This document shows positions 41,681 to 64,000 of a stretch of 64,000 nt of DNA, piece by piece. The notes below the pieces were generated by a model. It did no database searches and was not told the DNA's origin. It saw only the letters and a list, made by a program, of their open reading frames with translations. How positions within the stretch are numbered: position 1 is the stretch's first letter; the number at the start of each line of letters is the position of its first letter. Source of the stretch: a virus; IMG/VR virus record IMGVR_UViG_3300042566_001051, positions 11,126 to 75,125 of that record; one strand, written 5' to 3'. A program made the position numbers and the translations under genes.

Positions 41681-41720
41681 TAGTCGGACTGTTGACAGCA
41701 TGAAACAGTCCGACTAATAT
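41681..41720 (+). promoter_or_regulatory. PL-like promoter with two operators
   Basis: TTGACA-N17-TAATAT; TAGTCGGACTGTT at 41681 and inverted copy at 41704. Confidence 0.88.
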
Positions 41721-43914: not shown

Positions 43915-44403
43915 ATGGCCCGCCCTGCAATCGAAATCAACACGGCAGCAATCGCCTGCATGTACTCAGCAGGCAAGCCGGCGTGCGAGATAGCGGAAGA
44001 AATTGGCGTTTCGACGCAAACCGTTCTCCGCCGGCTGAAGGCCGCCGGGATGCACGTCAAGCCGCAGGGCGAGCGAATGCGCGGGACGACTTCAAAGCCA
44101 GAATTCGTTGGCCCTGCCCTGCCGCGAGGCGCCCGCAACTCGATCAACAAGCTGGGTTCTTCCGGTTTGAGCAGTCAAGGCTATGTCCGCATCAACACCG
44201 GTTCGCGCAAGCGCCAATACGAGCATGTCCTGAAAGCAGAAAAGGCGCTTGGGCGGCGCCTAAAACCCGGCGAGGTCGTGCATCACATCAACTGCGACCG
44301 AACCGATAACCGAAGTGAAAACCTGCTTGTGTGCTCGCACAAGTACCACCTCCAACTCCACGCCAGGATGCGTCGCAACGACTACTGGCGCCAATTCAAC
44401 TGA
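43915..44403 (+). CDS. HTH-HNH homing endonuclease
   Basis: EHVLKAEKALGRRLKPGEVVHHINCDRTDNRSENL; N-terminal HTH. Confidence 0.85.
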   Translation: MARPAIEINTAAIACMYSAGKPACEIAEEIGVSTQTVLRRLKAAGMHVKPQGERMRGTTSKPEFVGPALPRGARNSINKLGSSGLSSQGYVRINTGSRKRQYEHVLKAEKALGRRLKPGEVVHHINCDRTDNRSENLLVCSHKYHLQLHARMRRNDYWRQFN

Positions 44404-44417
44404 AAGGACGGCCCAAC

Positions 44418-45551
44418 ATGGCTACCACTAACCTCTCCAACCTCCAGCAGGGGCAGCAGCAACAGACCGCCCGCCGACCCAAGACCATCTTCGACTTCCT
44501 GGACGACCCGCGCGTCCAGAAGGGTATCGGCGCCGTGGCCGGAAAGTTCCTGACGCCCGACCGCTTCCTGCGTTTGGCGATCAACGCGGTGAAGAAAACT
44601 CCGCTGCTTGCCCAGTGCGATCCGCAAAGCGTCCTGGGTTCCTTCATGGCATCTGCTGCCCTGGGCCTGGAGCCGAACACAGTACAGCAGCAAGCGTTTC
44701 TGATTCCCTACAAGAAGCGTGCCAAGGTCGATAACCAGTGGGTGGATATTTACGAATGCCAGTTCCAGATTGGCTATCGCGGCTTTATCACCCTCGCCCA
44801 CCGCTCTCCGCACATCGCCAGCGTCCAGGCCGAAGCGATCCACGACGGCGACCTGTTCGACCACATGCTGGGCTCCGAGTCGTTCCTGAAGTACCGCAAG
44901 GCGCTCAAGGATCGTGGCGGCCTGATCGGCTCGTTCTGCTACACGAAGCTGGAATCCGGCATTGAAATGGCGACCGTTCTTCCGCTCTCCGAGGTGGAGA
45001 AGATTCGCGGCAAGAGCGAGACCTACAACGCCCTGATGCGCAACGTCGAGCAGGCCGACAACCAGAAAGACCGCGAGAAGGCCGAAAAGAAGCTGGCCGA
45101 AACGCCCTGGGTCATGTGGGAAGACGACATGGCCGCCAAGTCGGCGATCAAGAAGCACGCCAAGCAGTTGCCGTTGATGCCCGGTGACGCGATGTCGGCC
45201 GCTGCTGAAATCGACTCCAACGCCGACCGCAACGTCATCGACATGTCGGCGATGGCTGACCCGGATGTCGTGCGCGGCGTGGTGCAGGACGGCTACAGCC
45301 CGCCGGCGATTGAGCACCAAGAGGCCGAGCACCTGCCCGCCGACCTTGGCAAAGGAAATCGCCAGGCCGAACCGGTTGAGGCCCGCCAAGCCCGCCAGCA
45401 GCCGGCCCGGCGCGCCGCCCAGGCCAACGTCGATCAAGAGACCGGCGAAATCCAGGGAGGCGGCGACAACTGGGAGCCGACGGCAGAAGAGCTTGCCGAG
45501 ATTCAAGCGCGCGAACTCGCTGAGTCCGGCGGCTTCGGCAACGTCGATTAA
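44418..45551 (+). CDS. recT: RecT-family single-strand annealing recombinase
   Basis: CDPQSVLGS...LGLEP...AFLIPY...CQFQIGYRG...MAAKSAIKK. Confidence 0.92.
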   Translation: MATTNLSNLQQGQQQQTARRPKTIFDFLDDPRVQKGIGAVAGKFLTPDRFLRLAINAVKKTPLLAQCDPQSVLGSFMASAALGLEPNTVQQQAFLIPYKKRAKVDNQWVDIYECQFQIGYRGFITLAHRSPHIASVQAEAIHDGDLFDHMLGSESFLKYRKALKDRGGLIGSFCYTKLESGIEMATVLPLSEVEKIRGKSETYNALMRNVEQADNQKDREKAEKKLAETPWVMWEDDMAAKSAIKKHAKQLPLMPGDAMSAAAEIDSNADRNVIDMSAMADPDVVRGVVQDGYSPPAIEHQEAEHLPADLGKGNRQAEPVEARQARQQPARRAAQANVDQETGEIQGGGDNWEPTAEELAEIQARELAESGGFGNVD

Positions 45552-45596
45552 CTCACAACCACCGGGCGGCCACCGCGCCGCCCCAGGGAGAACCCC

Positions 45597-46118
45597 ATGC
45601 AAGTTATTCGCATCACCATGCCGGACGGCGCCAAGTACGACGTTCCGACAGAAATCATCGCCCGCAACCGGGCCAAGTATTACGCCGACAAGGAGTTTGA
45701 CGGCGACATCGAGCGTTCGCTGGCCGAGGACACGCTCCCGCTCTTCCAGTCCGACGACTACGAAATTCACGACTGGGCCGCCAACAACATGAACTGGAGC
45801 GACGTGAAGGATCACGCGACCCTTGCATCGCTGCCGGAAGACAGAGAAGCGTCGCACCAGGAAGGCTGGATCAACGGCGAGTACGAAATCATCGACAAGC
45901 CGGACGGCGCCGCTGCCGACCTTTTGAACCTTGAACGGCTGGCAAGCATGCCGCTGAAGGTCATCACCCGCTCCATGTCTCTCGCCGGCGCCAGCAAGGT
46001 GCAACTGGTTTTTGAGACCGCAGGGGAAAAGCCGGTCGGGGCAATCATTCTGCTGACCGGCGACGACACCGAACGCTACCTGAAGGCCATCGAGGCGGAA
46101 GCTGAATCCGAAGGCTGA
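45597..46118 (+). CDS. Hypothetical protein
   Basis: 173 aa, GGAG RBS. Confidence 0.6.
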   Translation: MQVIRITMPDGAKYDVPTEIIARNRAKYYADKEFDGDIERSLAEDTLPLFQSDDYEIHDWAANNMNWSDVKDHATLASLPEDREASHQEGWINGEYEIIDKPDGAAADLLNLERLASMPLKVITRSMSLAGASKVQLVFETAGEKPVGAIILLTGDDTERYLKAIEAEAESEG

Positions 46119-46134
46119 CCACGAAAGGACGGAC

Positions 46135-47976
46135 ATGAAAATAGAATCCATTGGCGTCAGCAACTTCCAAATGCTGACCGACATCAACATCAATCTCGCC
46201 GGCACGCCGATCTGCCTGATCGCCGGCGCCAACGAACAAGGCAAGTCGTCATTGCACGAGGCCATCCGCTTCGCGCTGACCGGCGAAAGCACCCGCGTCA
46301 AGCTGAAGAAGGACATGGACGCCCTGGTGCGCGATGGCACGAAAACGGGCGGCGTCATCGTCCGCCTGGAAAACGGCAACAGCGCCGAGCTCGAATTGCC
46401 GGCCGGCAAAGTTTCGACGGTCGGCACGCTGGTCAATGACTTGCAGTTGAAGGCGCTTCCGCTGGTTATGGATGCCGGCCGCTTCGCCGCCATGACCGAG
46501 AACGACCGCCGTGCCTTCCTGTTCGATCTGTCCGGACTGCAATGCGACAGCAAGAACGTCGGCGACCGCCTCGTTGCGCGTGGCTGCGACGCCAAGAAGG
46601 TTGAGGCAATCGCCCCGCTGCTGCGCAACGGATTTCCGGCAGCCGAGACCGAGGCGCGAACCAAGGTGCGCGAGAAAAAGGCAAGCTGGAAGACCGTGAC
46701 TGGCGGCGAGACCTGGGGAAAAGACAAGGCGGCAAAGTGGCAGCCGGCCGCCCTGCCTCCTGAGTCGGACAAGGCGGCGGGACGGGCGGAGAATGCGCGC
46801 CAAAAAGCCAGCGAGGTTGAGCGCGAGCTTTCGGCAGCGCAGCAGGAACTTGGCGCGGCCCGTGCCGAATTGCAGCGCCGGCAGCAGGCCGAGACCGAGC
46901 GCGAACATCTTGCCGAAAAAGCTGGCACCGTCGGCCGGTTTAAGTCAAAGCTGGCGCACGACGAGGCGGAATTGAAGCAGTGGGAGGCAAAGGTTGAAGA
47001 AACCCGCGCCAAGGCCGGCGCCGCAAGCGTCAATCCGAAAGCACCGGGCGAGTACCTGTTGCGCGGCCTGGCCGCCGTGGCAGACGAATTCCTTGTCGTG
47101 GCTGAAAATCACCATGACATCGAGTGGCCGGAAGGGCTAGTCAGCCGCGCATCCGCTCATTTGGCTGAATACAAAAAGCTGCATGGCTGGCCGTTCAAGA
47201 GCGGCGACCAGGCAGACCCGGAGGCAGTTGCGCGGTTGCCTGAGCATGAGCGCGCACTGACCTTGCTGCAAAGCGCCGTTGCCAACAGCAAGCGCGACCT
47301 GGCAGCCGCTGAAGCCGCCGCCACCAAGCTGGCTGAACTGGATGGCGAGAAGGTCGAGGCAATCGACTTGGAGGCGATTCAGGCCAAGGTCAGTGAGTTG
47401 AGCGAAAAGCGCAACGGCTGGCGCGCCGACGCCGAAAAATACCAGGCCATTGCCGAGCAGGCAAAGCGGCACCAGGAAGTCATCGACCAAGCGGCCGCGC
47501 TGCATGGCGACATCCTTGCGTGGTCTGACATCGCCGACGCCCTGGCTCCCGATGGAATCCCCGGTGAAATGCTGGCCGATGCCATCAAGCCGCTGAACGA
47601 CCGACTGCGCGCAACGTCGATTGCCACTGGCTGGGATCAGGTTTCGATTGATGCCGACATGACCATCCGAATCAACGGCCGCCTGTATTCGCTGGGCAGC
47701 CAGTCGGCGCGCTACCGGGCAAACATGGCGATGGTCGAGGCTATTTCGTTCCTGTCTGGCCTGCGCTTCTTCGCTATCGACGAATTCGACTGCCTTGATT
47801 CCGATAACCGCATGGCTGGCCTCAAGTGGTTTCATCAGCTTGCGGTATCCGGCGATGCGGAAACGATGCTGGTGTTTGGCACCTTCAAGCAGCCGCCGCA
47901 AGCGCCTAACACGTTTCAGGTCTTGTGGATGGAGCGCGGCTCTGTCGGAGGTGACTCGTTACGGAGGGCTGCATAA
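46135..47976 (+). CDS. SbcC/Rad50-like coiled-coil ATPase
   Basis: GANEQGKSS Walker A, long coiled coil, FFAIDEFDCLD Walker B. Confidence 0.8.
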   Translation: MKIESIGVSNFQMLTDININLAGTPICLIAGANEQGKSSLHEAIRFALTGESTRVKLKKDMDALVRDGTKTGGVIVRLENGNSAELELPAGKVSTVGTLVNDLQLKALPLVMDAGRFAAMTENDRRAFLFDLSGLQCDSKNVGDRLVARGCDAKKVEAIAPLLRNGFPAAETEARTKVREKKASWKTVTGGETWGKDKAAKWQPAALPPESDKAAGRAENARQKASEVERELSAAQQELGAARAELQRRQQAETEREHLAEKAGTVGRFKSKLAHDEAELKQWEAKVEETRAKAGAASVNPKAPGEYLLRGLAAVADEFLVVAENHHDIEWPEGLVSRASAHLAEYKKLHGWPFKSGDQADPEAVARLPEHERALTLLQSAVANSKRDLAAAEAAATKLAELDGEKVEAIDLEAIQAKVSELSEKRNGWRADAEKYQAIAEQAKRHQEVIDQAAALHGDILAWSDIADALAPDGIPGEMLADAIKPLNDRLRATSIATGWDQVSIDADMTIRINGRLYSLGSQSARYRANMAMVEAISFLSGLRFFAIDEFDCLDSDNRMAGLKWFHQLAVSGDAETMLVFGTFKQPPQAPNTFQVLWMERGSVGGDSLRRAA

Positions 47977-53348: not shown

Positions 53349-53883
53349 GAAGCTGATTCGCCATCTTGAAATCAGCGAAGTACAGAACCTTGACTCTATC
53401 CGCGTCACGCTGGAGGACATCGAGCCGAGAAAGGGGCGCATCAATATTGAGTGCTATGGCAAGGCGTGGGCGTCGTATTGGGGCGGAATGGGGGATCGGA
53501 CTATCGCCGAGTTCTTCTGTTCTTGCGATGAGCACTACTTGGCAGGGAAACTCGCCAGCGGCCTCAATAGTTCGGTATTCGATCCTGAAGGGTTGATCGT
53601 GACCCTGCGCAAGGAAGTTATCCGCGACCGCCGGAGACGCGACCTGACCGCCAGCGAAGCGCGCGAGTTGTTCGATGAAATTGACGAGGTTGGCGATGTT
53701 ACCGACCCGTGGAGCCAGAGCAACCTGATGCAGAAACTTCTGGGTGACGAGTGGTGGTATCGGCTGCCGGAAAAGGACAACCCGGACTACCTGTATCTGA
53801 CCCGCATCATACGGGCAGTAAAGGAAGCGCTGTTTTCAACAATGAGGATCGAAGAAAAGGAAGAGCATGGCCTCAGTCAATAA
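53335..53883 (+). CDS. Conserved phage hypothetical protein
   Basis: LD.IRV.LED...G.I.I.CYG.AW..YWGGMG. Confidence 0.7.
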
Positions 53884-54349
53884 AGTAATCCTGGTCGGGC
53901 ACCTGGGGAAAGACCCGGAGACCCGCTACATGCCGAATGGTGACGCGATAACAAACGCCACCCTGGCTACGTCCGAATCATGGAAGGACAAGCAGACGGG
54001 CGAGAAGAAGGAGCAAACGGAGTGGCATCGCCTCGTTTTCTACCGGAAGCTCGCCGAAATCGCCGGGCAGTACCTGCGCAAAGGCTCCCTGATCTACATC
54101 GAGGGAAGCCTGAAAACCCGGAAGTGGCAGGACAAGGACGGGCAAGACCGCTACACCACGGAAATCACGGTCAATGAAATGACCATGCTTGGCGGTCGTG
54201 GCGACGCCAGCGGCGGACAGTCTTCCGGCGAACCGCAGCAGCGGCAGCAGCAACAGCGCCCACAAGGCAACGGCGGCGGGCAGCAGCGGCAAAGCGCACC
54301 TCAATCACGGGGCTTCGACGACTTCGAGGACGACATCCCTTTTGATTGA
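53867..54349 (+). CDS. ssb: Single-stranded DNA-binding protein
   Basis: [16 protein letters not shown]...TEWHR...DDIPF. Confidence 0.97.
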
Positions 54350-54386: not shown

Positions 54387-54409
54387 GGCCCCACCTGGGG
54401 CCATTTTTT
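54387..54409 (+). terminator. Intrinsic terminator between ssb and DGR target 1
   Basis: GGCCCCA-cc-TGGGGCC then A and T6. Confidence 0.65.
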
Positions 54410-54430: not shown

Positions 54431-55414
54431 ATGGGCAAGATCATCGGCATTATCTTCGGCAAGAAAAACACCCCCTGGCAGCGCATCGACGAGGCCGGCA
54501 ACAGCATCGACGTGGCGCCGGGCTACTTCGACGAGCACCCGGCCTACGCTGGCATCCAGGACGAAATCATCGACGGCCAGCACATGGTGCGCGTGCCGAC
54601 CTTCTACTACCGTTCTGGCGTTATCGAGTCTGGCGAGCACGTCGGCAAGAAAGCCGTCTGGATCAGCGACGAGCACGACGAAGGATTCAGCGCCCACCCT
54701 GCTTTCATGCGCAACGCCCTGCAACTGAAGGCGTTCTATGTCGGCAAATACCAGGGCACGCCTGATGGCGACAAGCTGGGCTCACAGCCGGGCCAGATGC
54801 CACTAACGCGAATCAACTTCCCGGCCATGCAAAAGGCAGCCGAGGCGCGCAACGGCGAGTTCGATGGCTTTCAGTTGTGGAGCATCTATCACCTTGGCGC
54901 CATTCAAACGCTCGCGCTGATCGAACTTGGAACGCCGGACGCCAAGTCGGCTCTTGGTGATGGCTACGTCAATGGCAGCGGCGCCCGCCCGGTTGATGAT
55001 GAGGTAGTCGCTCAGGCAACTTGGCGCGGCATCGTGGGCCTCTGGGGCAACGTGTGGCAGATGGTCGATGGCCTGCAAACCGACGAAGAGCGCCGCTATC
55101 GCATCTGGGATGCTGAAGGCGGGAAATCCTACGTATCCACCGGCGTCAAGGCGCCATCCAGCGGCTGGTTCCACCGCCGCGCCCGCAAGCAGGGCGAGGG
55201 CTTCGACCTGGGCGCCGTGTTTGTGGCGAAGAAGACCCGCGAGGATCGTGACGATTCGGCCTTCGGCAACTACTTCTGGGCCTGGGGAAACGCTGTGGCG
55301 TACCACGGCGGCGTTTGGAGCCACGGCGCGCTCGCCGGCCTGTTCTCTCTCAACGTCTACTACGCCGCGTCGTACTCGGGCCCGAGCATCGGCGGCCGCC
55401 TCGCAAAGGTGTAA
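54431..55414 (+). CDS. DGR target 1: C-type-lectin/FGE-fold protein with C-terminal variable region
   Basis: AAGGAG RBS; HPAF...FYVGKY, GIVGLWGNVWQMVDG, GG.W...AGLF...IGGRL; ends in a VR matching TR. Confidence 0.92.
   Translation: MGKIIGIIFGKKNTPWQRIDEAGNSIDVAPGYFDEHPAYAGIQDEIIDGQHMVRVPTFYYRSGVIESGEHVGKKAVWISDEHDEGFSAHPAFMRNALQLKAFYVGKYQGTPDGDKLGSQPGQMPLTRINFPAMQKAAEARNGEFDGFQLWSIYHLGAIQTLALIELGTPDAKSALGDGYVNGSGARPVDDEVVAQATWRGIVGLWGNVWQMVDGLQTDEERRYRIWDAEGGKSYVSTGVKAPSSGWFHRRARKQGEGFDLGAVFVAKKTREDRDDSAFGNYFWAWGNAVAYHGGVWSHGALAGLFSLNVYYAASYSGPSIGGRLAKV
55304..55407 (+). repeat. DGR variable region VR1
   Basis: 104-nt match to TR with 14 mismatches, all at TR adenines. Confidence 0.97.
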
Positions 55415-55468
55415 TGGGTCATGTGACCTGTGTCATGTAATCGGGCTGGCCCGCCGAGCGGGCCGCCC
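55408..55468 (+). promoter_or_regulatory. IMH and DNA hairpin downstream of VR1
   Basis: 61 nt identical except one base to the VR2 3' flank; GGCCCGC-CGA-GCGGGCC hairpin 55448-55464. Confidence 0.85.
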
Positions 55469-55494
55469 GAAACGATTTCAGAGCCAACAAAATC

Positions 55495-55932
55495 ATGCAA
55501 ATCCTCAAATTCAAAAAGACCGACCCCAAAGCCATCATTCCACGCCGCCAAACCGAAGGTGCGGCGGGGTTTGACCTGCACGCGCTCGAAGCCGAGTACC
55601 TGCACAAGACGACAACGCCCCTGATGGTTCGCACCGGTATTTCGGTGGAGATTCCGCCCGGCCATGTTGGGCTGATCCGAGACCGCTCCGGCCTCGCCGC
55701 AAAGCACGGAATAACGGTTCTCGCCGGCGTCATCGACGCCGACTACCGAGGCGAGCTCAAGGTGATTCTCGCCCACCACGGCCAAGGCGCCCTCAACATC
55801 CAGCCAGGCGAGCGAATCGCCCAACTGGTAGTGACCGTGTGCCCAGATTTCGAGGTGCAGGAAGTCGAAGACCTTTCCGACACGGAGCGGGGCGCCGGCG
55901 GGTTTGGTAGCACGGGAACCGGCGCGGCCTGA
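55495..55932 (+). CDS. dut: dUTPase
   Basis: AAGFDL, RSG, GVIDADYRGE, ERIAQ, RGAGGFGSTG. Confidence 0.97.
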   Translation: MQILKFKKTDPKAIIPRRQTEGAAGFDLHALEAEYLHKTTTPLMVRTGISVEIPPGHVGLIRDRSGLAAKHGITVLAGVIDADYRGELKVILAHHGQGALNIQPGERIAQLVVTVCPDFEVQEVEDLSDTERGAGGFGSTGTGAA

Positions 55933-55946
55933 TAGGAGAGCCAGTC

Positions 55947-56234
55947 ATGCCTTGCTACATCGAGAGAACAAGGGACGGCGGGACGATGTTTCTGTGCGGC
56001 AATCTTGGGCCGCACTGCGCCGCTGAGAAGTGCGCGGCAAGTTCCGGCTACCTATGCGATTACCCGGTTGGCGACGGCAAGACCTGCGACCTTCCGCTGT
56101 GCAGCAGCCATGCCTATCAAGTCGCCCCGAACGTCCATTACTGCCCTGGCCATCTGATTTTGTGGAATGAGTTTCGTGACTCCGGCGGGGTTGAAAAGGA
56201 ACTGGTGAACGTAGTGCCATTCCCGCAGAAATAG
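55947..56234 (+). CDS. Cys-rich hypothetical protein
   Basis: LCDYPVG.GKTCD..LC..H...YCP.H. Confidence 0.65.
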   Translation: MPCYIERTRDGGTMFLCGNLGPHCAAEKCAASSGYLCDYPVGDGKTCDLPLCSSHAYQVAPNVHYCPGHLILWNEFRDSGGVEKELVNVVPFPQK

Positions 56235-56256
56235 TCGAGCAGACATCAACCAACGA

Positions 56257-56283
56257 GGGGCGCCGAGAGCGCCCCGATTTTTT
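56257..56283 (+). terminator. Intrinsic terminator
   Basis: GGGGCGC-cgaga-GCGCCCC followed by a T run. Confidence 0.65.
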
Positions 56284-56300
56284 GCCCATTGGAGGGCGCG

Positions 56301-56768
56301 ATGCCAAAGAGCAAGAAGCCGCGCCGGAAATACAGTCCGGCCCGCCATCAAGTGAAGAAAAACACCCCGCGCATGGACAGCATCTACCTTCTGTTCCAGC
56401 CCATCTACACCGCATTCGACAGGCTTGCGGACGGTGAAATCGAAGTGTCGCGCGGGAAGCCGATCTTCAAGGATTTCTACAACGAATGGTGCGAGCTGGC
56501 GCCGGCAATGGACGGTTGGGCCGACTGCTGGGAGCGCATCTGCCGCAACCAGGGAATCGACATTGATCTTGAGCCGCTTCGCAAGCTGGCCCGCAAGCTC
56601 GATTACGGCATCCCGCTCACCGAGGACGATGTTTCTGCCGGCCGCGCCGTGATTGACGAGACGCGCAGCGCCTTTGTTTCGCTCCCGGTCGAAGTGACCA
56701 GGGCGCATGCCGTCACTGAGCAAATCCAGATCGAAGTAGATCGCCTGAACCTGAAGGAAGCCGCATGA
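56301..56768 (+). CDS. Hypothetical protein
   Basis: MPKSKKPRRKY N-terminus; GGAGG RBS. Confidence 0.65.
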   Translation: MPKSKKPRRKYSPARHQVKKNTPRMDSIYLLFQPIYTAFDRLADGEIEVSRGKPIFKDFYNEWCELAPAMDGWADCWERICRNQGIDIDLEPLRKLARKLDYGIPLTEDDVSAGRAVIDETRSAFVSLPVEVTRAHAVTEQIQIEVDRLNLKEAA

Positions 56769-58684
56769 TGCGCCCACAACTTGCCCTGCCTTTCCACGGC
56801 GAACTGATTATTGACAACTTCGCCGGCGGCGGCGGAACGAGCACCGGCCTTGAGGCCGCATTCGGCCGCCCGGTTGATATTGCCATCAACCATGACCCCG
56901 AGGCCCTAGCGATGCATGCCATCAACCACCCGCACACGCTCCACCTGTGCGAAAGCGTCTGGGATGTCGATCCGATCAAGGTAACGAAGAATCAGCCGGT
57001 CGGCCTGGTGTGGCTTTCTCCAGACTGCAAGCACTTCAGCAAAGCGAAGGGCGGGACGCCGGTTGCGAAGCACATTCGCGGCCTGGCATGGGTGACGATG
57101 CGCTGGGCTGCATTGTGCCGGCCGCGTGTCATCATGCTCGAAAACGTCGAGGAATTCCGCACCTGGGGGCCGCTTGTCGTCGGCGACGATGGGAACGCCT
57201 ACCCAGACCCGTCGCGCAAGGGGAAGACCTTCGAGAGCTTCATCCGGCAACTGAAGGCGCACGGCTACAAGGTCGATTGGCGAGAGTTGCGCGCCTGCGA
57301 CAACGGAGCCCCGACGATCCGCAAGCGCTTCTTCATGGTTGCCCGGCGCGACGGTCTTCCGATCCACTGGCCGGAGCAGACGCACGGCGCCCCGACATCG
57401 CGCGAGGTGATCGCCCGCAAGATAGCCCCGTACCGGACGGCCGCCGAGTGCATTGATTTCGGCGTCGAGGCGGCCAGCATCTTCGACCGCAAGAAGCCGC
57501 TGGCAACCAACACCCAGCGCCGCGTTGCAAAAGGGTTGTGGCGCCACGTCCTGACCTCTGACGCGCCATTCATCGTTGGCGATGCCGGCGCGCTGGCGCC
57601 GTTCTTGAATGAGCACGCCAACGCCAGTAACCAGCGCACCATGTCGGCCAACGAGCCACTGCGGACGATCTGCGCCCAGGTCAAGGGCGGGCATTTCTCA
57701 GTGGTTGCGCCGTCGCTCGCGCCTCTTCGTGGAACCAGCGAAGCTCACCTTGGCGGCCATAGCATCAAGGCGCCTCTTTCGACCATTTCCGCCGGCGGGA
57801 CGCATCATGCCCTGGTCGGCGCAAACCTTGTGACCATCGGATACGGTGAGCGCAAGGGTCAGGACGCCCGGACAAGCAGTGTCGAGCAGCCGCTTGGAAC
57901 CGTGGTTGCCGGCGGCGTCAAACAAGCGCTTGTGTCGGCCCACTTGGTTGATATGGGACATGGCGAGTCGTGCAGCACCGGTGCAAAACGCTGGAGTAGC
58001 GGCGTCCGCTCCCTGGAAACGCCGCTCAACTCAGTGCTTGCCAGCAGCATCCCGAGCGCCTTGGTTGCCGCCTTCTTCGAACAGGCAAACGGCGGGTTCT
58101 ACGATGGCGATGGCCGCCCGGCGGATGCTCCTATTTCGACCATCACGGCAGCCGGGAGCAACCAGCGCCTGGTGACTGCCTACTTGGTCAAATACTACGG
58201 CAGCGGCGGCCAATGGCAGACCCTCCACGAACCAATGCACACCCTGCCGACCAAGGCACGCATGGGCCTGGTGCAAACCGTCCAGGTTCCGGCTGACTTC
58301 GTTGCACCGGAACACATTGCCCGCGCCAGGCAGTGCGCCATGTTGCTCCATGAGCACCTTCCAGAGCACTTTCCAAGTCCGGCAGACATGGTTCTTGTCG
58401 GCGAATGGGTTCTGGTCGACATCACGCTGCGCATGCTCAAAGCGCGCGAACTGTACCGCGCCCAGGGCTTCCCGGAGTCCTACGTTATCGAGGAAATACC
58501 CGATCCGAAACTGCTGTTCAAGGATGGCGTTCAGGCGGCCCATCCGCTGGAGATTCCGCGCGTTCCGCTGACGGTGACGGCTCAGGTTCGCATGTGCGGA
58601 AACAGCGTCTCGCCGGTGCAGGCCGAGGCACTAGCAGCAGCAAACTTCCGCCACGAGGCGATGTTTATGGAGAAATCAGCATGA
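56765..58684 (+). CDS. DNA cytosine-5 methyltransferase
   Basis: DNFAGGGG, SPDCKHFS, ENVEEF, PTIRKR, RAQGF, GNSV. Confidence 0.92.
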   Translation: MMRPQLALPFHGELIIDNFAGGGGTSTGLEAAFGRPVDIAINHDPEALAMHAINHPHTLHLCESVWDVDPIKVTKNQPVGLVWLSPDCKHFSKAKGGTPVAKHIRGLAWVTMRWAALCRPRVIMLENVEEFRTWGPLVVGDDGNAYPDPSRKGKTFESFIRQLKAHGYKVDWRELRACDNGAPTIRKRFFMVARRDGLPIHWPEQTHGAPTSREVIARKIAPYRTAAECIDFGVEAASIFDRKKPLATNTQRRVAKGLWRHVLTSDAPFIVGDAGALAPFLNEHANASNQRTMSANEPLRTICAQVKGGHFSVVAPSLAPLRGTSEAHLGGHSIKAPLSTISAGGTHHALVGANLVTIGYGERKGQDARTSSVEQPLGTVVAGGVKQALVSAHLVDMGHGESCSTGAKRWSSGVRSLETPLNSVLASSIPSALVAAFFEQANGGFYDGDGRPADAPISTITAAGSNQRLVTAYLVKYYGSGGQWQTLHEPMHTLPTKARMGLVQTVQVPADFVAPEHIARARQCAMLLHEHLPEHFPSPADMVLVGEWVLVDITLRMLKARELYRAQGFPESYVIEEIPDPKLLFKDGVQAAHPLEIPRVPLTVTAQVRMCGNSVSPVQAEALAAANFRHEAMFMEKSA

Positions 58685-59262
58685 CCGAAACACCAGCGCA
58701 GTACGAAATCAAGTCCTTGTCGGACTTCCTCAACGTGCCAGCCGAAAAGCTGCCGGAGTGCCTTGGCGACTTCGAGCAGTGGGTTGCGCTTCGCCGGTCA
58801 ATGGCCGACGGCTTCAAGTTGCTGGAGCCGCTGTTTGGCGACTTGTCTGCGGCCGTGGAAATGAAGGACGTTTTCATCTGGCTTGACGACGGGTTGAGCG
58901 GCTTCAGCCAGATCAACATCGTGTGCGGCGAAGAGCAGATTGGAACCTTGAGCCTGACAACTGAAGGCAGCCAGCCAACAAGGCACGACCTTCAGAAGGA
59001 AGGCAAGCACCCGGCGCCTTGCGCGAGATTCTGCGAGGCAACAGCATTTGAAATCGAGATTCGCAGACTGCGAACTGAGGCCCAAGGCGCGGCCGCCGCA
59101 AAGACTGCTCTATCCCAGTTCTATCACGCCTCGAAGGAGCTCATCGACTCCGGCGGATCGCCTGAAGCATGTCGGAAATTTGACGATGCCGAGGCAAAAG
59201 TTCTTGCGATTATTGGCATTGTCGAGCAAGACACGAAAACCAGAGAGGATCACCAAAAATGA
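58681..59262 (+). CDS. Hypothetical protein
   Basis: 193 aa, ATGA-coupled; contains HPAPCARFCEATAF. Confidence 0.6.
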   Translation: MTETPAQYEIKSLSDFLNVPAEKLPECLGDFEQWVALRRSMADGFKLLEPLFGDLSAAVEMKDVFIWLDDGLSGFSQINIVCGEEQIGTLSLTTEGSQPTRHDLQKEGKHPAPCARFCEATAFEIEIRRLRTEAQGAAAAKTALSQFYHASKELIDSGGSPEACRKFDDAEAKVLAIIGIVEQDTKTREDHQK

Positions 59263-59519
59263 ACGCACGAGACCTGACGTTTGAGGAAATGAAGAAGACC
59301 GGCAAGGTGCTCATCAACCGTAAGCAGCTTCTTGGCATGGTTCCACTGTCCGAGCGGACTATCCTGGATATGGAGAAGCGCGGGGAATTCCCCCGTCGCT
59401 TTGCCATCACGCCCCGCTTGGTGGCTTGGGACTTGCGCGAGATTGAAAAGTGGATCGAGGAACGAAAGGCCGCCGCTATGCAGCCGATGGCGCCCGGCCT
59501 TCAAGCTGCTGCGGCTTAG
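59259..59519 (+). CDS. AlpA-family excisionase (recombination directionality factor)
   Basis: VPLSERTILDMEKRGEFPRRF..TPRLVAW...EIEKWI; convergent with the integrase. Confidence 0.85.
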   Translation: MNARDLTFEEMKKTGKVLINRKQLLGMVPLSERTILDMEKRGEFPRRFAITPRLVAWDLREIEKWIEERKAAAMQPMAPGLQAAAA

Positions 59520-60708
59520 TCCATTGGTCGATCATGTCGGCCCAGTCTTGCAGCATCGCGCGCCGTTGCTCAGAGTATTCGGCCTTGTTGTAGACGGCGC
59601 GCACCCCTTTTTGCTCATGGGCAAGGCACTTCTCAATCCAGTCCGTGTTGTAGCCGGCCTCGTGCAGCAGCGTTGATGCCGTCCGGCGCAGATCGTGCGG
59701 GCCAAACTTGCCCAGCGGCTTCCCTTCCTTCTGCGCCAGCTTGAACGCCAGTGTCGTAACTTGATTCAGCGTCGCCTTGCTCATGTGAATGTCTGGATCG
59801 TAGCGGGAAGGCAGGACGTAGCGAGAGCCGCCGGCGCACGTCTTCAGCGCCACGAAAATATCGAGAACCTGCCTCGAAAGATAGACGTTGTGCGGGTTCC
59901 TCCGCTTCATCCGCTCCGCCGGTATCGTCCATACCGCATCGGTGAAGTTGATTTCTTCCCAGGTGGCTTCGATCAATTCCGACTTGCGCAGCATGGTCAG
60001 CAGTAGAACCTTGACCGCAAGGCGGATGGTCGGCGATGTCGATATGCGCTCCAGGTACTGGTAGAGAATCCTGATTTCTTCCGGTGTCAGCGAGCGGTCT
60101 TTCGGCTGGAATCGGGCTATCGAGGTTGGCCGCACCAGTTCTGCCGGATTTTCGTACTTGTGACCCCTCTCCATCGCGTAACGGAAGACCATATACACCA
60201 CTTCGCGGGCATGAACGGCGGTCGCCGGCGCCCCGCGCTCCACGATCTTGTCGCACAGACCGCGCAAGTCCTCGTGCGTTATCTCAGTCATCTTCAGCCG
60301 ACCGAACGACCCCTTCAGGTCGCGCTCGAAGACGGATCGCCGCATGTCTCGCGTCGATTCTGCCATCTGGTGATCCTTCAGCCAGAGTTCGGCCCACTCC
60401 CCAAACGAATCCGCCTCCTTGACCTTCTGCTTTTCCCTGGCCTTCTGCCGAGACGGAGACTTGCCGGAAGCAAGCCCCTTCTTCGCCTCAGAAAGCAACT
60501 CCCTGGCCTCCGACAGGGTGATGCCGCCCGGCCCATATCTTCCAAGCACCAGCGTTTCCTGACGCCCATTGATGCGGTAGTTGTACCGGAATGAGATTGT
60601 CCCCGTGGTCAGCACCGTGACGTAGAGGCCGTCGCGGTCAGTGAGCTTGTACGCCTTCTCTCCAGGCTTGAGATTCCTCAGTTTCGTGTCTGTCAGCATG
60701 TTTTCCAT
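59476..60708 (-). CDS. int: P4-type tyrosine integrase
   Basis: MLTDTKLRNLKP..K.YKL.DRDGLY arm-binding domain; R (LRKSEL), HDLRRT, LAH, VYN. Confidence 0.95.
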   Translation of the reverse strand: MENMLTDTKLRNLKPGEKAYKLTDRDGLYVTVLTTGTISFRYNYRINGRQETLVLGRYGPGGITLSEARELLSEAKKGLASGKSPSRQKAREKQKVKEADSFGEWAELWLKDHQMAESTRDMRRSVFERDLKGSFGRLKMTEITHEDLRGLCDKIVERGAPATAVHAREVVYMVFRYAMERGHKYENPAELVRPTSIARFQPKDRSLTPEEIRILYQYLERISTSPTIRLAVKVLLLTMLRKSELIEATWEEINFTDAVWTIPAERMKRRNPHNVYLSRQVLDIFVALKTCAGGSRYVLPSRYDPDIHMSKATLNQVTTLAFKLAQKEGKPLGKFGPHDLRRTASTLLHEAGYNTDWIEKCLAHEQKGVRAVYNKAEYSEQRRAMLQDWADMIDQWTKPQQLEGRAPSAA

Positions 60709-60717
60709 CCATCGCCC

Positions 60718-61095
60718 GATACCATCATTCTGATGTCCGGTTTTTGTGTGTTTTTTTGTTTGTGCATCAACAACTTACGCCAATTCAATACCATCATTCA
60801 ACAAAAAACACGGTGATGGTATTGAAGGCTGTTCATGGTATCAGCGATTGCCAATGCCATCAAAAAAACCATCAAAAAATGCTGCTTCCCACTGCTTTTT
60901 GCTGCCTGACGCTGCCAGCCAAAAAAGCGAAAAGCCCTGATTTCTCAGGGCTTCCGGGGCGTTTTCTGCCTTCAGTTGCTAGTGTCTGCCTGACGCAGAT
61001 TCATTCCCACTCAATAATAAACAAGACTGAAAGCGCCTTGTTTTTGCTGTGTTTTTCAGTGTGGCGATTTGCCGATACCATCGTTTGTACCATCA
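60718..61095. mobile_element. attP region: guaA 3'-end core with arm-type repeats
   Basis: Core TCATTCCCACTCAAT 61001-61015 (reverse complement ATTGAGTGGGAATGA = IEWE-stop); TACCATC-like repeats on both sides. Confidence 0.8.
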
Positions 61096-61159
61096 TGGAG
61101 AAATGCTGCAATTTGCCAGTCATTGCCAATGCGGCAATCATCAACCAGGCGACTGGCGT

Positions 61160-62212
61160 TCATTTTACAGGGCATGCTCCGCGCAAGCCAGGAATCAATA
61201 CAAGGTCGCCAAGTACGCCCTCAACGGTCTGATGGGCGCTGCAATGCTTCGAGTAGGCGATGAACGACATCACCCGCTGCCTCACGAATTCCAGGTCGAT
61301 TTCACCGTCGTGGTACTGGGCCGCCATTTCCTTGAAGGCCAGGCGCGCCCGCTTGATGTTCCGCTTGCGTGGCAGGATGTGCGTCGGCCAGATGCGATAG
61401 CCGCAGAAGTCGATGCCGCGCTGCCAGGGGTGAATCGCGGTCTTCGGGTTCAGCGATAGCGCCAGGCCATTGACCGCCTCGCCAAGCTCGCGCATGACCT
61501 TCTGGGCGGCCGCCTTGTCTGGAACGATGGCGACGAAATCATCCATGTACCGGACGTAGAAGCGGATGCCCATGTCGTCCTTGGCGATGTGATCCAGGCG
61601 GTTCAGCATGATGTTCGCGGCAAGCTGGCTGGTCAGGGCGCCGACCGGCAGGCCGACGCCGGCCTCGTGGCCGTAGCCGCTGATGACCTTGCGCCACAGC
61701 CAGAGCACGTCCTTGTCTGAAATGGTGCGCTCCACCTCGCTCATGAGCACGTCGTGCCGGATGCTGGCGAAGTATTTGCTGATGTCGGCCTTCAGGACAT
61801 AAACCTTGTCGCCCCAGTTCCGTTTCGCCACGCGCAGGAAGTGTTGCGCCCGGAAGACGGCGCGCTGGGTGCCTTTATCGACGCGACAGGCAAACGAATC
61901 CGGGATGAATTTGCGCTCGAAGAGTGTATCGACGAGACGCACCAGGGCATGGTGAATCACGCGGTCGGCAAATGGCGGCGCCTGGATCATGCGCATCTTC
62001 GGCTCGAAGACGGTGAATTCGCGCTGCTTGCCCGGCGCCCAGGTCTTCCAGATCAGGTGATTTTGCAGGTTGATCAGGTTCTCTTCGAGATTGCTGGCAA
62101 AGCGCATCACTTCAAGGCGATACCGCTTGCCGTGGCGCGCCTCCTGGAAGGCTTGGTACAGGTTCTCGAATTCGATCAGTTTGGCCCAGAGGCCGTTGGT
62201 TGTTTTCGGCAT
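61160..62212 (-). CDS. DGR reverse transcriptase
   Basis: DRVIHHAL, LKADISKYF, GLPVGALTSQ, YVRYMDDF, GIDFCGY; 350 aa with no maturase or endonuclease domain; next to TR and avd. Confidence 0.96.
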   Translation of the reverse strand: MPKTTNGLWAKLIEFENLYQAFQEARHGKRYRLEVMRFASNLEENLINLQNHLIWKTWAPGKQREFTVFEPKMRMIQAPPFADRVIHHALVRLVDTLFERKFIPDSFACRVDKGTQRAVFRAQHFLRVAKRNWGDKVYVLKADISKYFASIRHDVLMSEVERTISDKDVLWLWRKVISGYGHEAGVGLPVGALTSQLAANIMLNRLDHIAKDDMGIRFYVRYMDDFVAIVPDKAAAQKVMRELGEAVNGLALSLNPKTAIHPWQRGIDFCGYRIWPTHILPRKRNIKRARLAFKEMAAQYHDGEIDLEFVRQRVMSFIAYSKHCSAHQTVEGVLGDLVLIPGLRGACPVK

Positions 62213-62371
62213 GTTGTTCTTGTGGGTGGTCGGGCGCCGCCACGTTCGCCGGTTTCCCGGCTACTGGCCGCAGCGCCCTGTTCATCTTCGACAGCATGGT
62301 CAGGACAATGGCCCCAAAGGAAATGCGCTGGACGGCGGCCACTTGAGCCGCTCGCCTTCTGGCGTCAGTCG

Positions 62372-62475
62372 TTTGCGAGGCGGCCGCCGATGTTCGTGTT
62401 CGAGTTCGACGCGGCGTTGTTGACGTTGAGATAGAACAGGCCGGCGTTCGCGCCGTTGCTCCAATTGCCGCCGTT
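62372..62475 (-). repeat. DGR template repeat (TR)
   Basis: AAC-rich 104 nt between avd and RT; matches both VRs except at adenines; diverges after GCAAA (IMH*). Confidence 0.97.
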
Positions 62476-62508
62476 ACTAAGCCATTGCCCCTCAAAAATC
62501 GGTGAGGG

Positions 62509-62856
62509 TTACATGGCGCTCCCTTCGTGCTTGATCCACGCGCCGACCATCTTGCCTATCTCGTTCGTGTGTCGCATCCAGACTTCCAGTCGGTTGGTGT
62601 TGATGTAGCCCATGCGGTGCGCCTTGCGGACGAAGCCCCGGAAAACCTCAATCTCGACATCGAGGTCAAACAGCGCGCCGGACTTCTGGCGACGCTTCCA
62701 GGCAACTACGGTCAGCCGCATGATCTTGTTCATGTCCGTGCGCATTTCGGCGCACAGCAAATGGCGTTCGAGCTTCGGGAACTGGTGCAACACGGTGTGC
62801 GTGTAGGCGTCCAGTTCCTCCAGCTTCGTCATCAAGGCAAGGTGCGCCTCACTCAA
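62509..62856 (-). CDS. avd: DGR accessory variability determinant
   Basis: QFPKLERHLL...LDVEIE...EIGKMVGAW; TTG start with GGGGAG RBS. Confidence 0.92.
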   Translation of the reverse strand: MSEAHLALMTKLEELDAYTHTVLHQFPKLERHLLCAEMRTDMNKIMRLTVVAWKRRQKSGALFDLDVEIEVFRGFVRKAHRMGYINTNRLEVWMRHTNEIGKMVGAWIKHEGSAM

Positions 62857-63169
62857 GCGTCCGCTCCCCTTCGTCGTGCTCGATATTCGCCTCGCAATGG
62901 CCAGGGTCGATCTTGTCCAGCAAGCGGCAGAGCGCGCACCCCCAAATCTTCCCCTTGCGCGCCGCCTTGCCGGCCCGGCTGCTGACGGTCTCGTCTTCGC
63001 TGCCGGCGCGCCCGACCAGGGCCGCATTCAGCGCCTGGTCGTTGGCCACGGCCACCGGCCACGCCCGGTTGCTGCCCAGCAGGGCGGCCCCCAGGGCGAT
63101 CAGGTTGCCGGCCAGCGCCATGAGCATCGAGCCAATCAGCAGCCCGATCCGTGCGCAGTAGCGTTTCAT
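62849..63169 (-). CDS. Phage membrane-associated hypothetical protein
   Basis: N-terminal TM; DQALNA...DETVSSRAGK...LCRLLD.IDPGHC. Confidence 0.7.
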   Translation of the reverse strand: MKRYCARIGLLIGSMLMALAGNLIALGAALLGSNRAWPVAVANDQALNAALVGRAGSEDETVSSRAGKAARKGKIWGCALCRLLDKIDPGHCEANIEHDEGERTLE

Positions 63170-63179
63170 GGCCGAGTCC

Positions 63180-63761
63180 TTACCAGGCGATGCCGGCAAC
63201 GTCTTCCGGCGTTGCAGCTACGTCGATCAGGTCTTCGGCAGCCTGCCGGCGGCCGATCAGCGCACCGGACGCGCCCGCGTAGGCGTTCATCTTGCCCAGC
63301 ACGCGCGAGGCCAGTTCAACCACGGGCAGCGAGCGGGCTTCGGCGATGGCAGTCAGCAGCGGCGCGGGCGCCTGCGGGTCGGCGGCCAGGGCTTCGGCTT
63401 CCTTGACCTGTTGCGGCCAGGACTGGATTTCGCGCTCCGGGTAGGAGGCGGCCAGGGCAGCCACGGCGGTATTGCATGCCTCGTTGATTTCGATGCGCTT
63501 GGCCGCCTTCACGGCTTCCAGCTTGGCATCGTCGCCGGCATCAAGATCAAGCTCGCCCAGGAATTCACACGCCGCCAGGTCGCAGGCCGGGATTTCCTCG
63601 GCCTCACCCTTGACGGTGACGGCAACAAACAGGCGGTCGGCGCGGTAGTCGGCGGGAACGAGCCAGGCTTTCACCTTGGCATCGGCGGCGATGGTCGCCA
63701 GCGGAACGGTCTTCTCGACGCCATCCACCGTGACAACCAGGGAACCATTTTCGATTTTCAT
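63180..63761 (-). CDS. Tail fibre assembly-like protein
   Basis: KAAKRIEIN...YPEREIQSWPQQVKEA...APLLTAIA.AR...LIGRRQ...I.W. Confidence 0.7.
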   Translation of the reverse strand: MKIENGSLVVTVDGVEKTVPLATIAADAKVKAWLVPADYRADRLFVAVTVKGEAEEIPACDLAACEFLGELDLDAGDDAKLEAVKAAKRIEINEACNTAVAALAASYPEREIQSWPQQVKEAEALAADPQAPAPLLTAIAEARSLPVVELASRVLGKMNAYAGASGALIGRRQAAEDLIDVAATPEDVAGIAW

Positions 63762-63784
63762 TCAGTGCTCCTTGTGAGAGGGAT

Positions 63785-63845
63785 GGGCGGCCCGCTCGGC
63801 GGGCCAGCCCGGTTACATGACACAGGTCACATGACCCATTACACC
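63785..63845 (-). promoter_or_regulatory. IMH and DNA hairpin downstream of VR2
   Basis: Near-identical to the VR1 flank; hairpin 63789-63805. Confidence 0.85.
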
Positions 63846-64000
63846 TTTGCGAGGCGGCCGCCGATGCCCGAGCCCGAGTGCGACGCGGCGTTGGCGACGT
63901 CGAGAAAGAACAGGCCGGCGATCGCGCCGTAGCTCCAATGGCCGCCGTGGTAGGCAACGCACGATGCGCCACTGTAGAAAATGTCAGGGAATGTCGCGCT
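63839..64000 (-). CDS. DGR target 2, C-terminal fragment (probable tail fibre/receptor-binding protein)
   Basis: Read manually: SATFPDIFYSGASCVAYHGGHWSYGAIAGLFFLDVANAASHSGSGIGGRLAKV-stop; upstream of a fibre-assembly-like gene. Confidence 0.85.
   Translation of the reverse strand, partial: SATFPDIFYSGASCVAYHGGHWSYGAIAGLFFLDVANAASHSGSGIGGRLAKV
63846..63949 (-). repeat. DGR variable region VR2
   Basis: 104-nt match to TR with 14 mismatches, all at TR adenines. Confidence 0.97.

Follow-up and report, generated by a model that had tools for sequence, protein, structure and literature searches.

Background

Can one diversity-generating retroelement (DGR) of a phage keep two genes variable and, if so, what is the second of them doing in the early region? 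The question is raised by a 64,000-nucleotide stretch of viral DNA (positions 11,126 to 75,125 of the IMG/VR record IMGVR_UViG_3300042566_001051), hereafter termed the window, in which the variable repeat (VR) of a tail fibre gene beside the DGR (VR2, in target 2) has a counterpart (VR1) at the end of a gene for a stand-alone protein of 327 residues, target 1 (T1). An original prediction for this DNA held that a single template repeat (TR) diversifies both genes, and that T1 may be an intracellular or early-made binder rather than part of the virion. The explanation that accounts best for the evidence assembled here, and to which we assign a probability of roughly 70%, is that one DGR serves two targets, of which T1 is a free module encoded in the early region.

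Results and discussion

One template repeat and two variable repeats

TR, VR2 (read in the minus-strand sense) and VR1 (read in the plus-strand sense) align without gaps over 104 nt (Table 1). Adenines occupy 27 positions of TR, 24 of them ahead of a stretch consisting only of G and C, as the original prediction had counted, and the 77 remaining positions are identical in both VRs. The alignment also reproduced the predicted positions of the three repeats and the 14 mismatches to TR in each VR, every one of them at a TR adenine. The first of these mismatches (AAC in TR, CAC in VR) is a fixed difference at the TR/VR boundary, present in every lineage examined, and the number of true adenine substitutions in each VR is therefore 13 rather than 14. 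VR1 and VR2 differ from one another at 12 positions, again all TR adenines; when the fixed first position is excluded, ten sites are mutated in both, and these carry the same base in four cases, with about 3.3 expected if the two were independent. As common substitutions are no more frequent than chance would produce, the two VRs appear to have been written independently, as had been proposed from their differing patterns. A scan of the whole genome that allowed up to 25 mismatches at the 77 non-adenine positions found three TR/VR copies only, each with no such mismatch.

The contig, 75,125 bp in length, is circular, and its 163 bp terminal overlap includes VR2. The two copies of this overlap (G000:C1:1-163 and 63838-64000 of the window) differ at three positions, all within VR2 and at TR adenines, where one copy encodes the residues G/G and the other H/S. 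Since the copies differ at TR adenines only, the assembly has captured two VR2 alleles in a single sample, the second of which has 16 mismatches to TR. With nine AAY codons and four codons containing a single adenine, each VR has the capacity to encode about 1e13 protein variants.

A complete DGR beside the tail fibre gene

Judged by its sequence features, the DGR is complete and of the type found in Bordetella phage BPP-1, comprising a reverse transcriptase (RT), a bAvd accessory protein, TR and VRs, a sequence for the initiation of mutagenic homing (IMH) and a hairpin behind each VR. Both signatures of the DGR clade of RTs, [I/L/V]GxxxSQ in motif 4 and YxDD, are present, and the 75-kb genome holds one RT and one TR. 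The differences between VR1 and TR are exclusively of the A-to-N kind and no other DGR is involved, which are the properties used by Wu et al. 2018 to define a non-adjacent target. The gene order fibre-p193-avd-TR-RT is found in dozens of viral and prophage loci. The fibre itself has an N-terminal part of about 520 residues, with an immunoglobulin-like domain, followed by a distal lectin module of about 334 residues, and the genes upstream of it are baseplate genes.

Homologues of the avd product match over only about 105-130 residues, and the true start of the gene is probably M66 (position 62832), giving a product of about 107 residues. The 65 preceding codons of the open reading frame (ORF; 62833-63027, minus strand) are an Arg/Ala-rich read-through, unmatched in the homologues and probably untranslated. 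In four related prophages (G003:C2:10405-13152, G002:C7:11340-14087, G004:C43:198894-201646 and G001:C1:167972-170724), a pair of DGR-type RT genes occurs in tandem with a spacing of about 1.7 kb and with identities of 69-73% and 44-46% to the RT of the window; these may be two stacked DGRs.

Recognition sequences behind the variable repeats

The IMH sequence GGCGGCCGCCTCGC is common to TR and both VRs, which diverge after AAA; the sequence behind TR is unrelated to that behind the VRs, corresponding to the distinction between IMH* and IMH. The 61-nt flank behind the VRs proved, as predicted, to be common to both with a single mismatch (60/61 identical), and in each copy it includes the GC hairpin GGCCCGC-CGA-GCGGGCC. 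A GC hairpin of at least 6 bp lies 25-37 nt past the stop codon in 57 of 65 unique related flanks, compared with 5% of shuffled sequences. As the stems have 21 different sequences among these 65 flanks, the hairpin appears to have undergone compensatory change.

Between the IMH and the hairpin, after the stop codon of each target (55414-55440 and 63813-63839), is a small element that contains the GTCATGT repeat twice and can be read as ATGGGTCATGTGACCTGTGTCATGTAA. Most lineages retain it, and it is probably a part of the recognition sequence rather than a gene. Together with their flanks, the two VRs form near-identical inverted repeats of about 165 bp, 8.4 kb apart (55304-55468 on the plus strand and 63785-63949 on the minus strand), and RecET is encoded by the phage. 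Were they to recombine, dut-methylase-int-RT-avd-p193 would be flipped, leaving the cassette to end behind T1; no such isomer, with p193-avd-RT behind T1, was seen in about 150 related loci.

T1 as a selected and hypervariable gene

Comparison with related genomes indicates that T1 is almost certainly an active second target. Nine lineages have T1, the fibre and TR together on a single contig; in these, VR1 departs from its own TR at 0-2 non-adenine positions, and from the TRs of all but the closest related phages at 7-27. Among four further genomes reached through their RT loci, VR1 follows its own TR in three, bringing the total to 12 of 13 other lineages; one of these three genomes has two DGRs, and VR1 there follows the TR of its own prophage. 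A DGR RT was present in all five T1-bearing genomes tested.

The distribution of variation within the gene is similarly uneven. In five clusters of T1 sequences at 90% identity, the last 40 columns account for 36-81% of the extra residue types, compared with an expected 12%; these residues stand at positions of AAY codons in TR, and a single site has as many as nine residues in a set of 15 sequences. The scaffold has a dN/dS of 0.03-0.04 relative to close relatives (285 codons), and in the last 42 codons pN is 0.18-0.20 and pS 0.06-0.09. A family of stand-alone targets in Mu-like phages is equally hypervariable. By these measures T1 is conserved, under selection and hypervariable among natural variants, and both VRs follow their own TR. 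The original prediction had considered that T1 might be a passive duplicate, with an invariant VR1 in a decaying gene; VR1 is not invariant and the scaffold is not decaying.

A bare lectin module

T1 and the final 334 residues of the fibre have 50% identity, the similarity beginning exactly at the module boundary (IIGI...WQRID), and T1 belongs to phrog_5302, a family labelled 'tail protein'. No Pfam match was found in T1, and a PDB sequence search with the protein returned only a marginal match to TaqVP, the variable protein of a Thermus aquaticus prophage; the fold was settled by structure search. The best structural match of an AlphaFold (AF2) model based on 56 homologues (pLDDT 91.5) is TaqVP, with a Z score of 27.3, an rmsd of 2.5 Å and 24% identity over 249 residues, residues 40-327 of the model being aligned with 17-380 of the chain. 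Further matches are TvpA, FGE and the lectin domain only of Mtd, the tropism determinant of BPP-1; residues 165-376 of the latter align with 43-327 of T1 and the rest of Mtd is unaligned.

About 40 residues precede the lectin domain of T1, too few for the two extra domains of Mtd. T1 accordingly lacks the trimeric, tropism-determining architecture of the Mtd type and has that of the single-domain TaqVP type, a full-length FGE-subtype fold with no extra domains. No signal peptide was apparent on inspection. As modelled, T1 is a bare FGE-type C-type-lectin module with neither a fibre anchor nor the trimerisation domains of Mtd, which bears out its description in the original prediction as a stand-alone lectin-fold protein without a fibre shaft; the length given there is likewise confirmed, with an ATG start behind a Shine-Dalgarno (SD) sequence (Table 1). 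The accompanying view that such a target is unusual did not hold, since stand-alone lectin targets of 330-380 residues are the norm for prophage DGRs (Mtd and TaqVP are examples) and remote ones inside prophages were reported by Wu et al. 2018.

Distribution and origins of stand-alone targets

The T1 family comprises more than 50 clusters of homologues of about 325 residues, a length that is conserved, and its named hosts include Azonexus, Alcaligenes, Pseudomonas (including P. aeruginosa), Burkholderia, Pandoraea, Bordetella hinzii, Castellaniella, Comamonas, Pigmentiphaga, Pseudothauera and Gulbenkiania. In a tree of the scaffold, from which the VR was removed, 17 stand-alone proteins form one clade (support 100/100) apart from the fibre modules. 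Another group of stand-alone proteins (L108/L113) falls within the fibre modules, and the stand-alone form therefore appears to have arisen at least twice. The T1 and fibre trees are not congruent.

T1 lies outside the morphogenesis block in every backbone examined, although its precise neighbours vary. The order ssb-T1-dut, which the original prediction proposed to seek in related phages, is present in the window and its close relatives; other lineages place T1 elsewhere. For instance, it follows a methylase gene in one lineage (L075), stands upstream of a YqaJ exonuclease gene in another (L097) and comes after MuA/MuB in a Mu-like Gulbenkiania prophage. The group of independent origin is found in a family of Mu-like phages, where the gene stands between those for Gam and for the late activator Mor, with an ORF that overlaps the upstream early gene by 11 nt. 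On one Mu-like viral contig (L047:1284-3600), the stand-alone target occurs twice, in tandem, between Gam/DBP and Mor.

The distance between T1 and the DGR cassette is 7 kb, on opposite strands, in the window; in prophage relatives, where the two come to lie at opposite prophage ends, it is about 62 kb. In Gulbenkiania mobilis DSM 18507 (L078/L089), a transposable prophage of the Mu-like kind has a fibre and DGR cassette very close to those of the window (92% identity for the fibre N-terminus and 91% for the RT). Given so similar a cassette on a Mu-like backbone, the DGR, fibre and T1 modules appear to move between P1/lambdoid and Mu-like backbones. Searches of INPHARED found no near match at the DNA level, hits below 30% identity only for T1 and the N-terminal part of the fibre, and no isolated, characterised phage with the system.

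Genome context and transcription

The plus-strand operon that contains T1 runs uninterrupted through genes for an exonuclease, an HNH protein, RecT, an SMC-like ATPase, a GNAT protein and several unknowns, then through ssb, T1 and dut, and finally through two unknowns and a C5 methylase gene. Control of the genome is lambdoid, with a cI-like repressor gene followed by cro-like and CII-like genes. The candidate PL-like promoter at the head of the operon, which follows the cI-like repressor gene, is the best sigma-70 consensus match in the 41.5-61.2 kb scanned, and the earlier placement of T1 downstream of such a promoter is supported by this match and by the unbroken operon. Pfam confirmed the neighbours as ssb and dut. 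On the minus strand, genes for a DnaC-like loader, NinB and a resolvase lead into the terminase and virion genes.

A candidate late motif, CGGAAAA-N-TANNNT, occurs four times in the window, compared with 0.19 expected, always before virion genes, and a fifth copy precedes the baseplate-fibre operon. There is none near T1, in agreement with the original prediction. The group T1-dut-p95 is flanked by terminator-like hairpins, although a sigma-70 consensus scan found no promoter directly at this group in the window. In two other lineages (L085 and L086), a near-consensus sigma-70-like sequence, TTGAC[TC]-N17-TAATAAT, lies about 100 nt before the T1 start, as a consensus match only; the two promoter-like sites have a common GTTAG...GGCTAATAAT core.

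T1 is probably expressed early, or at any rate independently of the late promoters, because its placement in the early region is convergent in unrelated backbones; absence from virions does not follow from this. The recurrent early placement, the sigma-70-type promoter candidates and the want of an anchor speak for a free binder that would be produced early or in the lysogen.

An ORF of 883 aa on the minus strand (44382-47033), with a high GC content at third codon positions, was rejected as a real gene, Pfam supporting plus-strand genes for RecT and the SMC-like ATPase at this position. Such a shadow ORF could mislead gene callers based on composition. The attP site is presumably close to the integrase gene; no attP core in common with a 99%-related prophage was found, the homology ending at about 60744 and about 61005, and the window contains no tRNA genes.

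Table 1. Positions of the DGR components, the two targets and their neighbours in the window
Feature	Position	Strand	Remarks
Candidate PL-like sigma-70 promoter	41692..41720	+	TTGACA-17-TAATAT; consensus match only; head of the plus-strand early operon
ssb	53867..54349	+	Upstream neighbour of T1; PF00436, E 2.5e-40
Terminator-like hairpin and T-run	54387..54402	+	Between ssb and T1; putative function
T1	54431..55414	+	Stand-alone variable protein of C-type-lectin fold, 327 aa; ATG 54431, SD AAGGAG
VR1	55304..55407	+	14 mismatches to TR, all at TR adenines; 0/77 non-A mismatches
IMH-distal flank of VR1	55408..55468	+	T1 stop codon 55412-55414; GC hairpin 55448-55464
dut (dUTPase)	55495..55932	+	Downstream neighbour of T1; PF00692, E 7e-35
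Terminator-like hairpin and T-run	56257..56275	+	After the T1-dut-p95 group
Tyrosine integrase	59476..60708	-	PF00589 and Arm domain; separates the T1 operon from the DGR cassette
DGR RT	61160..62212	-	350 aa; PF00078 (RVT_1), E 1.4e-21; VGALTSQ at residue 190, YMDD at 222
TR	62372..62475	-	Sense 62475..62372; between avd and RT; IMH*/spacer next, towards RT
avd (bAvd)	62509..63027	-	ORF of 172 aa; PF22296 over residues 65-167, 81.7 bits (cut-off 40)
p193	63180..63761	-	Conserved cassette gene between fibre and avd; phrog_2618; in dozens of related loci
IMH-distal flank of VR2	63785..63845	-	Includes stop codon; GC hairpin 63789-63805
Target 2, 3' end	63839..64000	-	855-aa tail fibre; crosses the circular junction into G000:C1:2-2569, minus strand
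VR2	63846..63949	-	14 mismatches to TR, all at TR adenines

Alternative explanations

The near-identity of the two VRs and their flanks could in principle be maintained by homologous recombination or gene conversion between the inverted repeats, of which the phage has a substrate in the 165 bp arms and a means in its RecT/exonuclease pair; T1 would then be a passive duplicate and retrohoming would play no part. This explanation is very unlikely, and was rejected. VR1 and VR2 differ at 12 sites, every one a TR adenine, their common substitutions are at chance level, and in many lineages VR1 matches TR, not VR2, at every non-adenine site, with upstream flanks that are only about 50% identical at the protein level. 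Hypervariability restricted to adenine positions inside 90% identity clusters cannot come from conversion, and strong purifying selection on the scaffold, the kept recognition elements and the lack of an inversion isomer among relatives likewise speak against a passive copy. In the classical cases of P1 and Mu, a silent alternative fibre end is held in reserve, and the inverted orientation and common flanks in the window are what might be expected if T1 were a comparable store, its protein irrelevant and its VR an archive on which the fibre gene can draw by recombination. Still less probability attaches to this proposal, also rejected: a silent cassette would not keep an SD sequence and start codon of its own, a scaffold dN/dS of 0.03 over 285 codons, a length of about 325 residues across more than 50 clusters and a confidently predicted fold.

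A more serious competitor is that T1 is a virion protein after all, forming a second diversified receptor-binding head that docks non-covalently on the fibre or baseplate in the manner of Mtd in BPP-1 or the gp38 adhesins of T2-like phages. Each particle would then have two binding specificities, and the position in the early operon would be incidental. To our knowledge, every phage DGR target characterised so far binds receptors. T1 has its closest relative in the fibre tip itself, to which it is similar from the exact module boundary onwards, and its PHROG family is one of tail proteins; Mtd, which sits on the fibres of BPP-1 as a separate protein, and TaqVP are also stand-alone; and in one lineage (L086) T1 lies directly behind the RT gene, on the strand of the late operon. 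Most of these points count against a free module as well as for docking. Against docking are the brevity of the segment before the lectin domain, which leaves T1 with no counterpart of the Mtd prism and sandwich or of the 520-residue N-terminal part of the fibre, its location outside the morphogenesis block and away from any late-promoter motif, and a candidate sigma-70-like promoter of its own in two lineages. Furthermore TaqVP, the closest structural match, is monomeric (PMC6328139). On balance docking is possible though somewhat improbable, and a virion role of some kind is quite possible for T1.

Other observations are also awkward for the view that T1 is a free early module diversified by this DGR. 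The terminator-like hairpin directly before T1 means that expression from the PL-like promoter would need read-through, and the case for 'early' is drawn from gene order and consensus motifs. In Comamonas nitrativorans (L077), VR1 has 13 non-adenine mismatches to the TR found there; T1 in this species may be decaying or served by another TR.

A proposed mechanism

Under the two-target explanation preferred here, the transcript of TR would be reverse transcribed with misincorporation at adenines by the single BPP-1-type DGR (61160-63027, minus strand), and the mutagenised cDNA would overwrite, in trans, the last 100 nt or so of two paralogous C-type-lectin genes. Recognition of each would depend on a GC-rich IMH copy of its own and on the GC hairpin downstream. 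One target would be the tip of the adjacent 855-residue fibre and the other the free T1 in the early-left operon of RecET, ssb, dut and methylase genes, which would be transcribed with the early or host-polymerase-dependent genes and not from the late virion promoters. T1 would act as a ligand-binding module outside the fibre, and if such a binder were made early or in the lysogen, an infecting genome would test its own variant directly. That T1 acts off the virion, binding a variable molecule of the host, its defences or a competitor phage in the infected cell or lysogen or after lysis, has about an even chance of being correct. The narrower suggestion of an early, cytoplasmic, antibody-like binder of variable intracellular molecules, such as host defence or competing-phage proteins, which would provide a repertoire for counter-defence or exclusion, is unlikely and is offered tentatively.

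Relation to known systems

The system resembles the BPP-1 DGR (mtd-avd-TR-brt) in its order of target, avd, TR and RT, its adenine-specific transfer, its GC-rich IMH and GC hairpin, the C-terminal VR on a C-type-lectin fold with about 1e13 variants and a host group that includes Alcaligenaceae. It differs in having two targets rather than one, an adjacent target fused to an 855-residue fibre and the additional cassette gene p193; T1 is without the beta-prism and beta-sandwich trimerisation domains of Mtd, and the backbone, by contrast with the 42-kb podovirus BPP-1, is that of a 75-kb P1-like virion with lambdoid control. The DGRs of Treponema denticola and Legionella similarly have one TR and RT that serve several dispersed VRs in trans, at any distance, via IMH-type sequences; these are cellular, and diversify surface lipoproteins with export signals, whereas T1 is phage-borne and has no apparent signal peptide. 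P1 (C segment, cin) and Mu (G segment, gin) possess invertible fibre tips, in which two alternative distal modules are arranged in opposite orientation. The arrangement in the window has neither an invertase nor a common constant part, the second copy being a separate, complete gene of the early region, and its variation arises from reverse transcription and not from a two-state switch.

TaqVP is a monomeric single-domain variable protein of a Thermus aquaticus prophage DGR (PDB 5vf4; PMC6328139). T1 shares with it the stand-alone, single-domain FGE-type lectin fold, a similar size, the C-terminal VR and a prophage location; taqvp is, however, the sole target and lies directly upstream of avd, whereas T1 is a second target, remote, on the other strand and in an early operon. 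According to Wu et al. 2018 (PMC5758913), 45 DGRs have non-adjacent targets, among them phage-associated DGRs with adjacent and non-adjacent targets in the same prophage, within about 50 kb, with A-to-N differences only; the nature and transcriptional context of the non-adjacent targets are not described in the main text of that survey, whereas the non-adjacent target of the window belongs to a conserved stand-alone family that recurs in early regions on unrelated backbones. Gut phages have two-target DGRs, which like the present one diversify two lectin-fold proteins of a single phage; they encode the tentaclins of Baykov et al. 2023 (PMC10743442), where the role of diversifying two genes is stated to be unclear. 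Tentaclins are reported to have an N-terminal lectin domain with immunoglobulin domains after it and are proposed to bind receptors, whereas T1 consists of the lectin module alone, is paralogous to the fibre tip and is encoded outside the structural region. Metagenome surveys that consider only VRs adjacent to the RT miss such targets, and the large ones were unable to detect non-adjacent targets. Multi-target DGRs and non-adjacent prophage targets are thus already known; what is new is a conserved free target in the early region, of which no description was found in a literature search of incomplete coverage.

Conclusions

The comparisons point to a large family of DGR targets, so far undescribed, that are free, strongly conserved and diversified by the TR that also serves the fibre; early recombination and host-takeover genes are a repeated setting for them. 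One DGR can serve targets lying at the two ends of an integrated prophage, with about 62 kb between them. If T1 docks on the virion, each phage would have two independently evolving specificities; if it acts off the virion, phage DGRs would serve not only host-range switching but also recognition inside the cell or after lysis.

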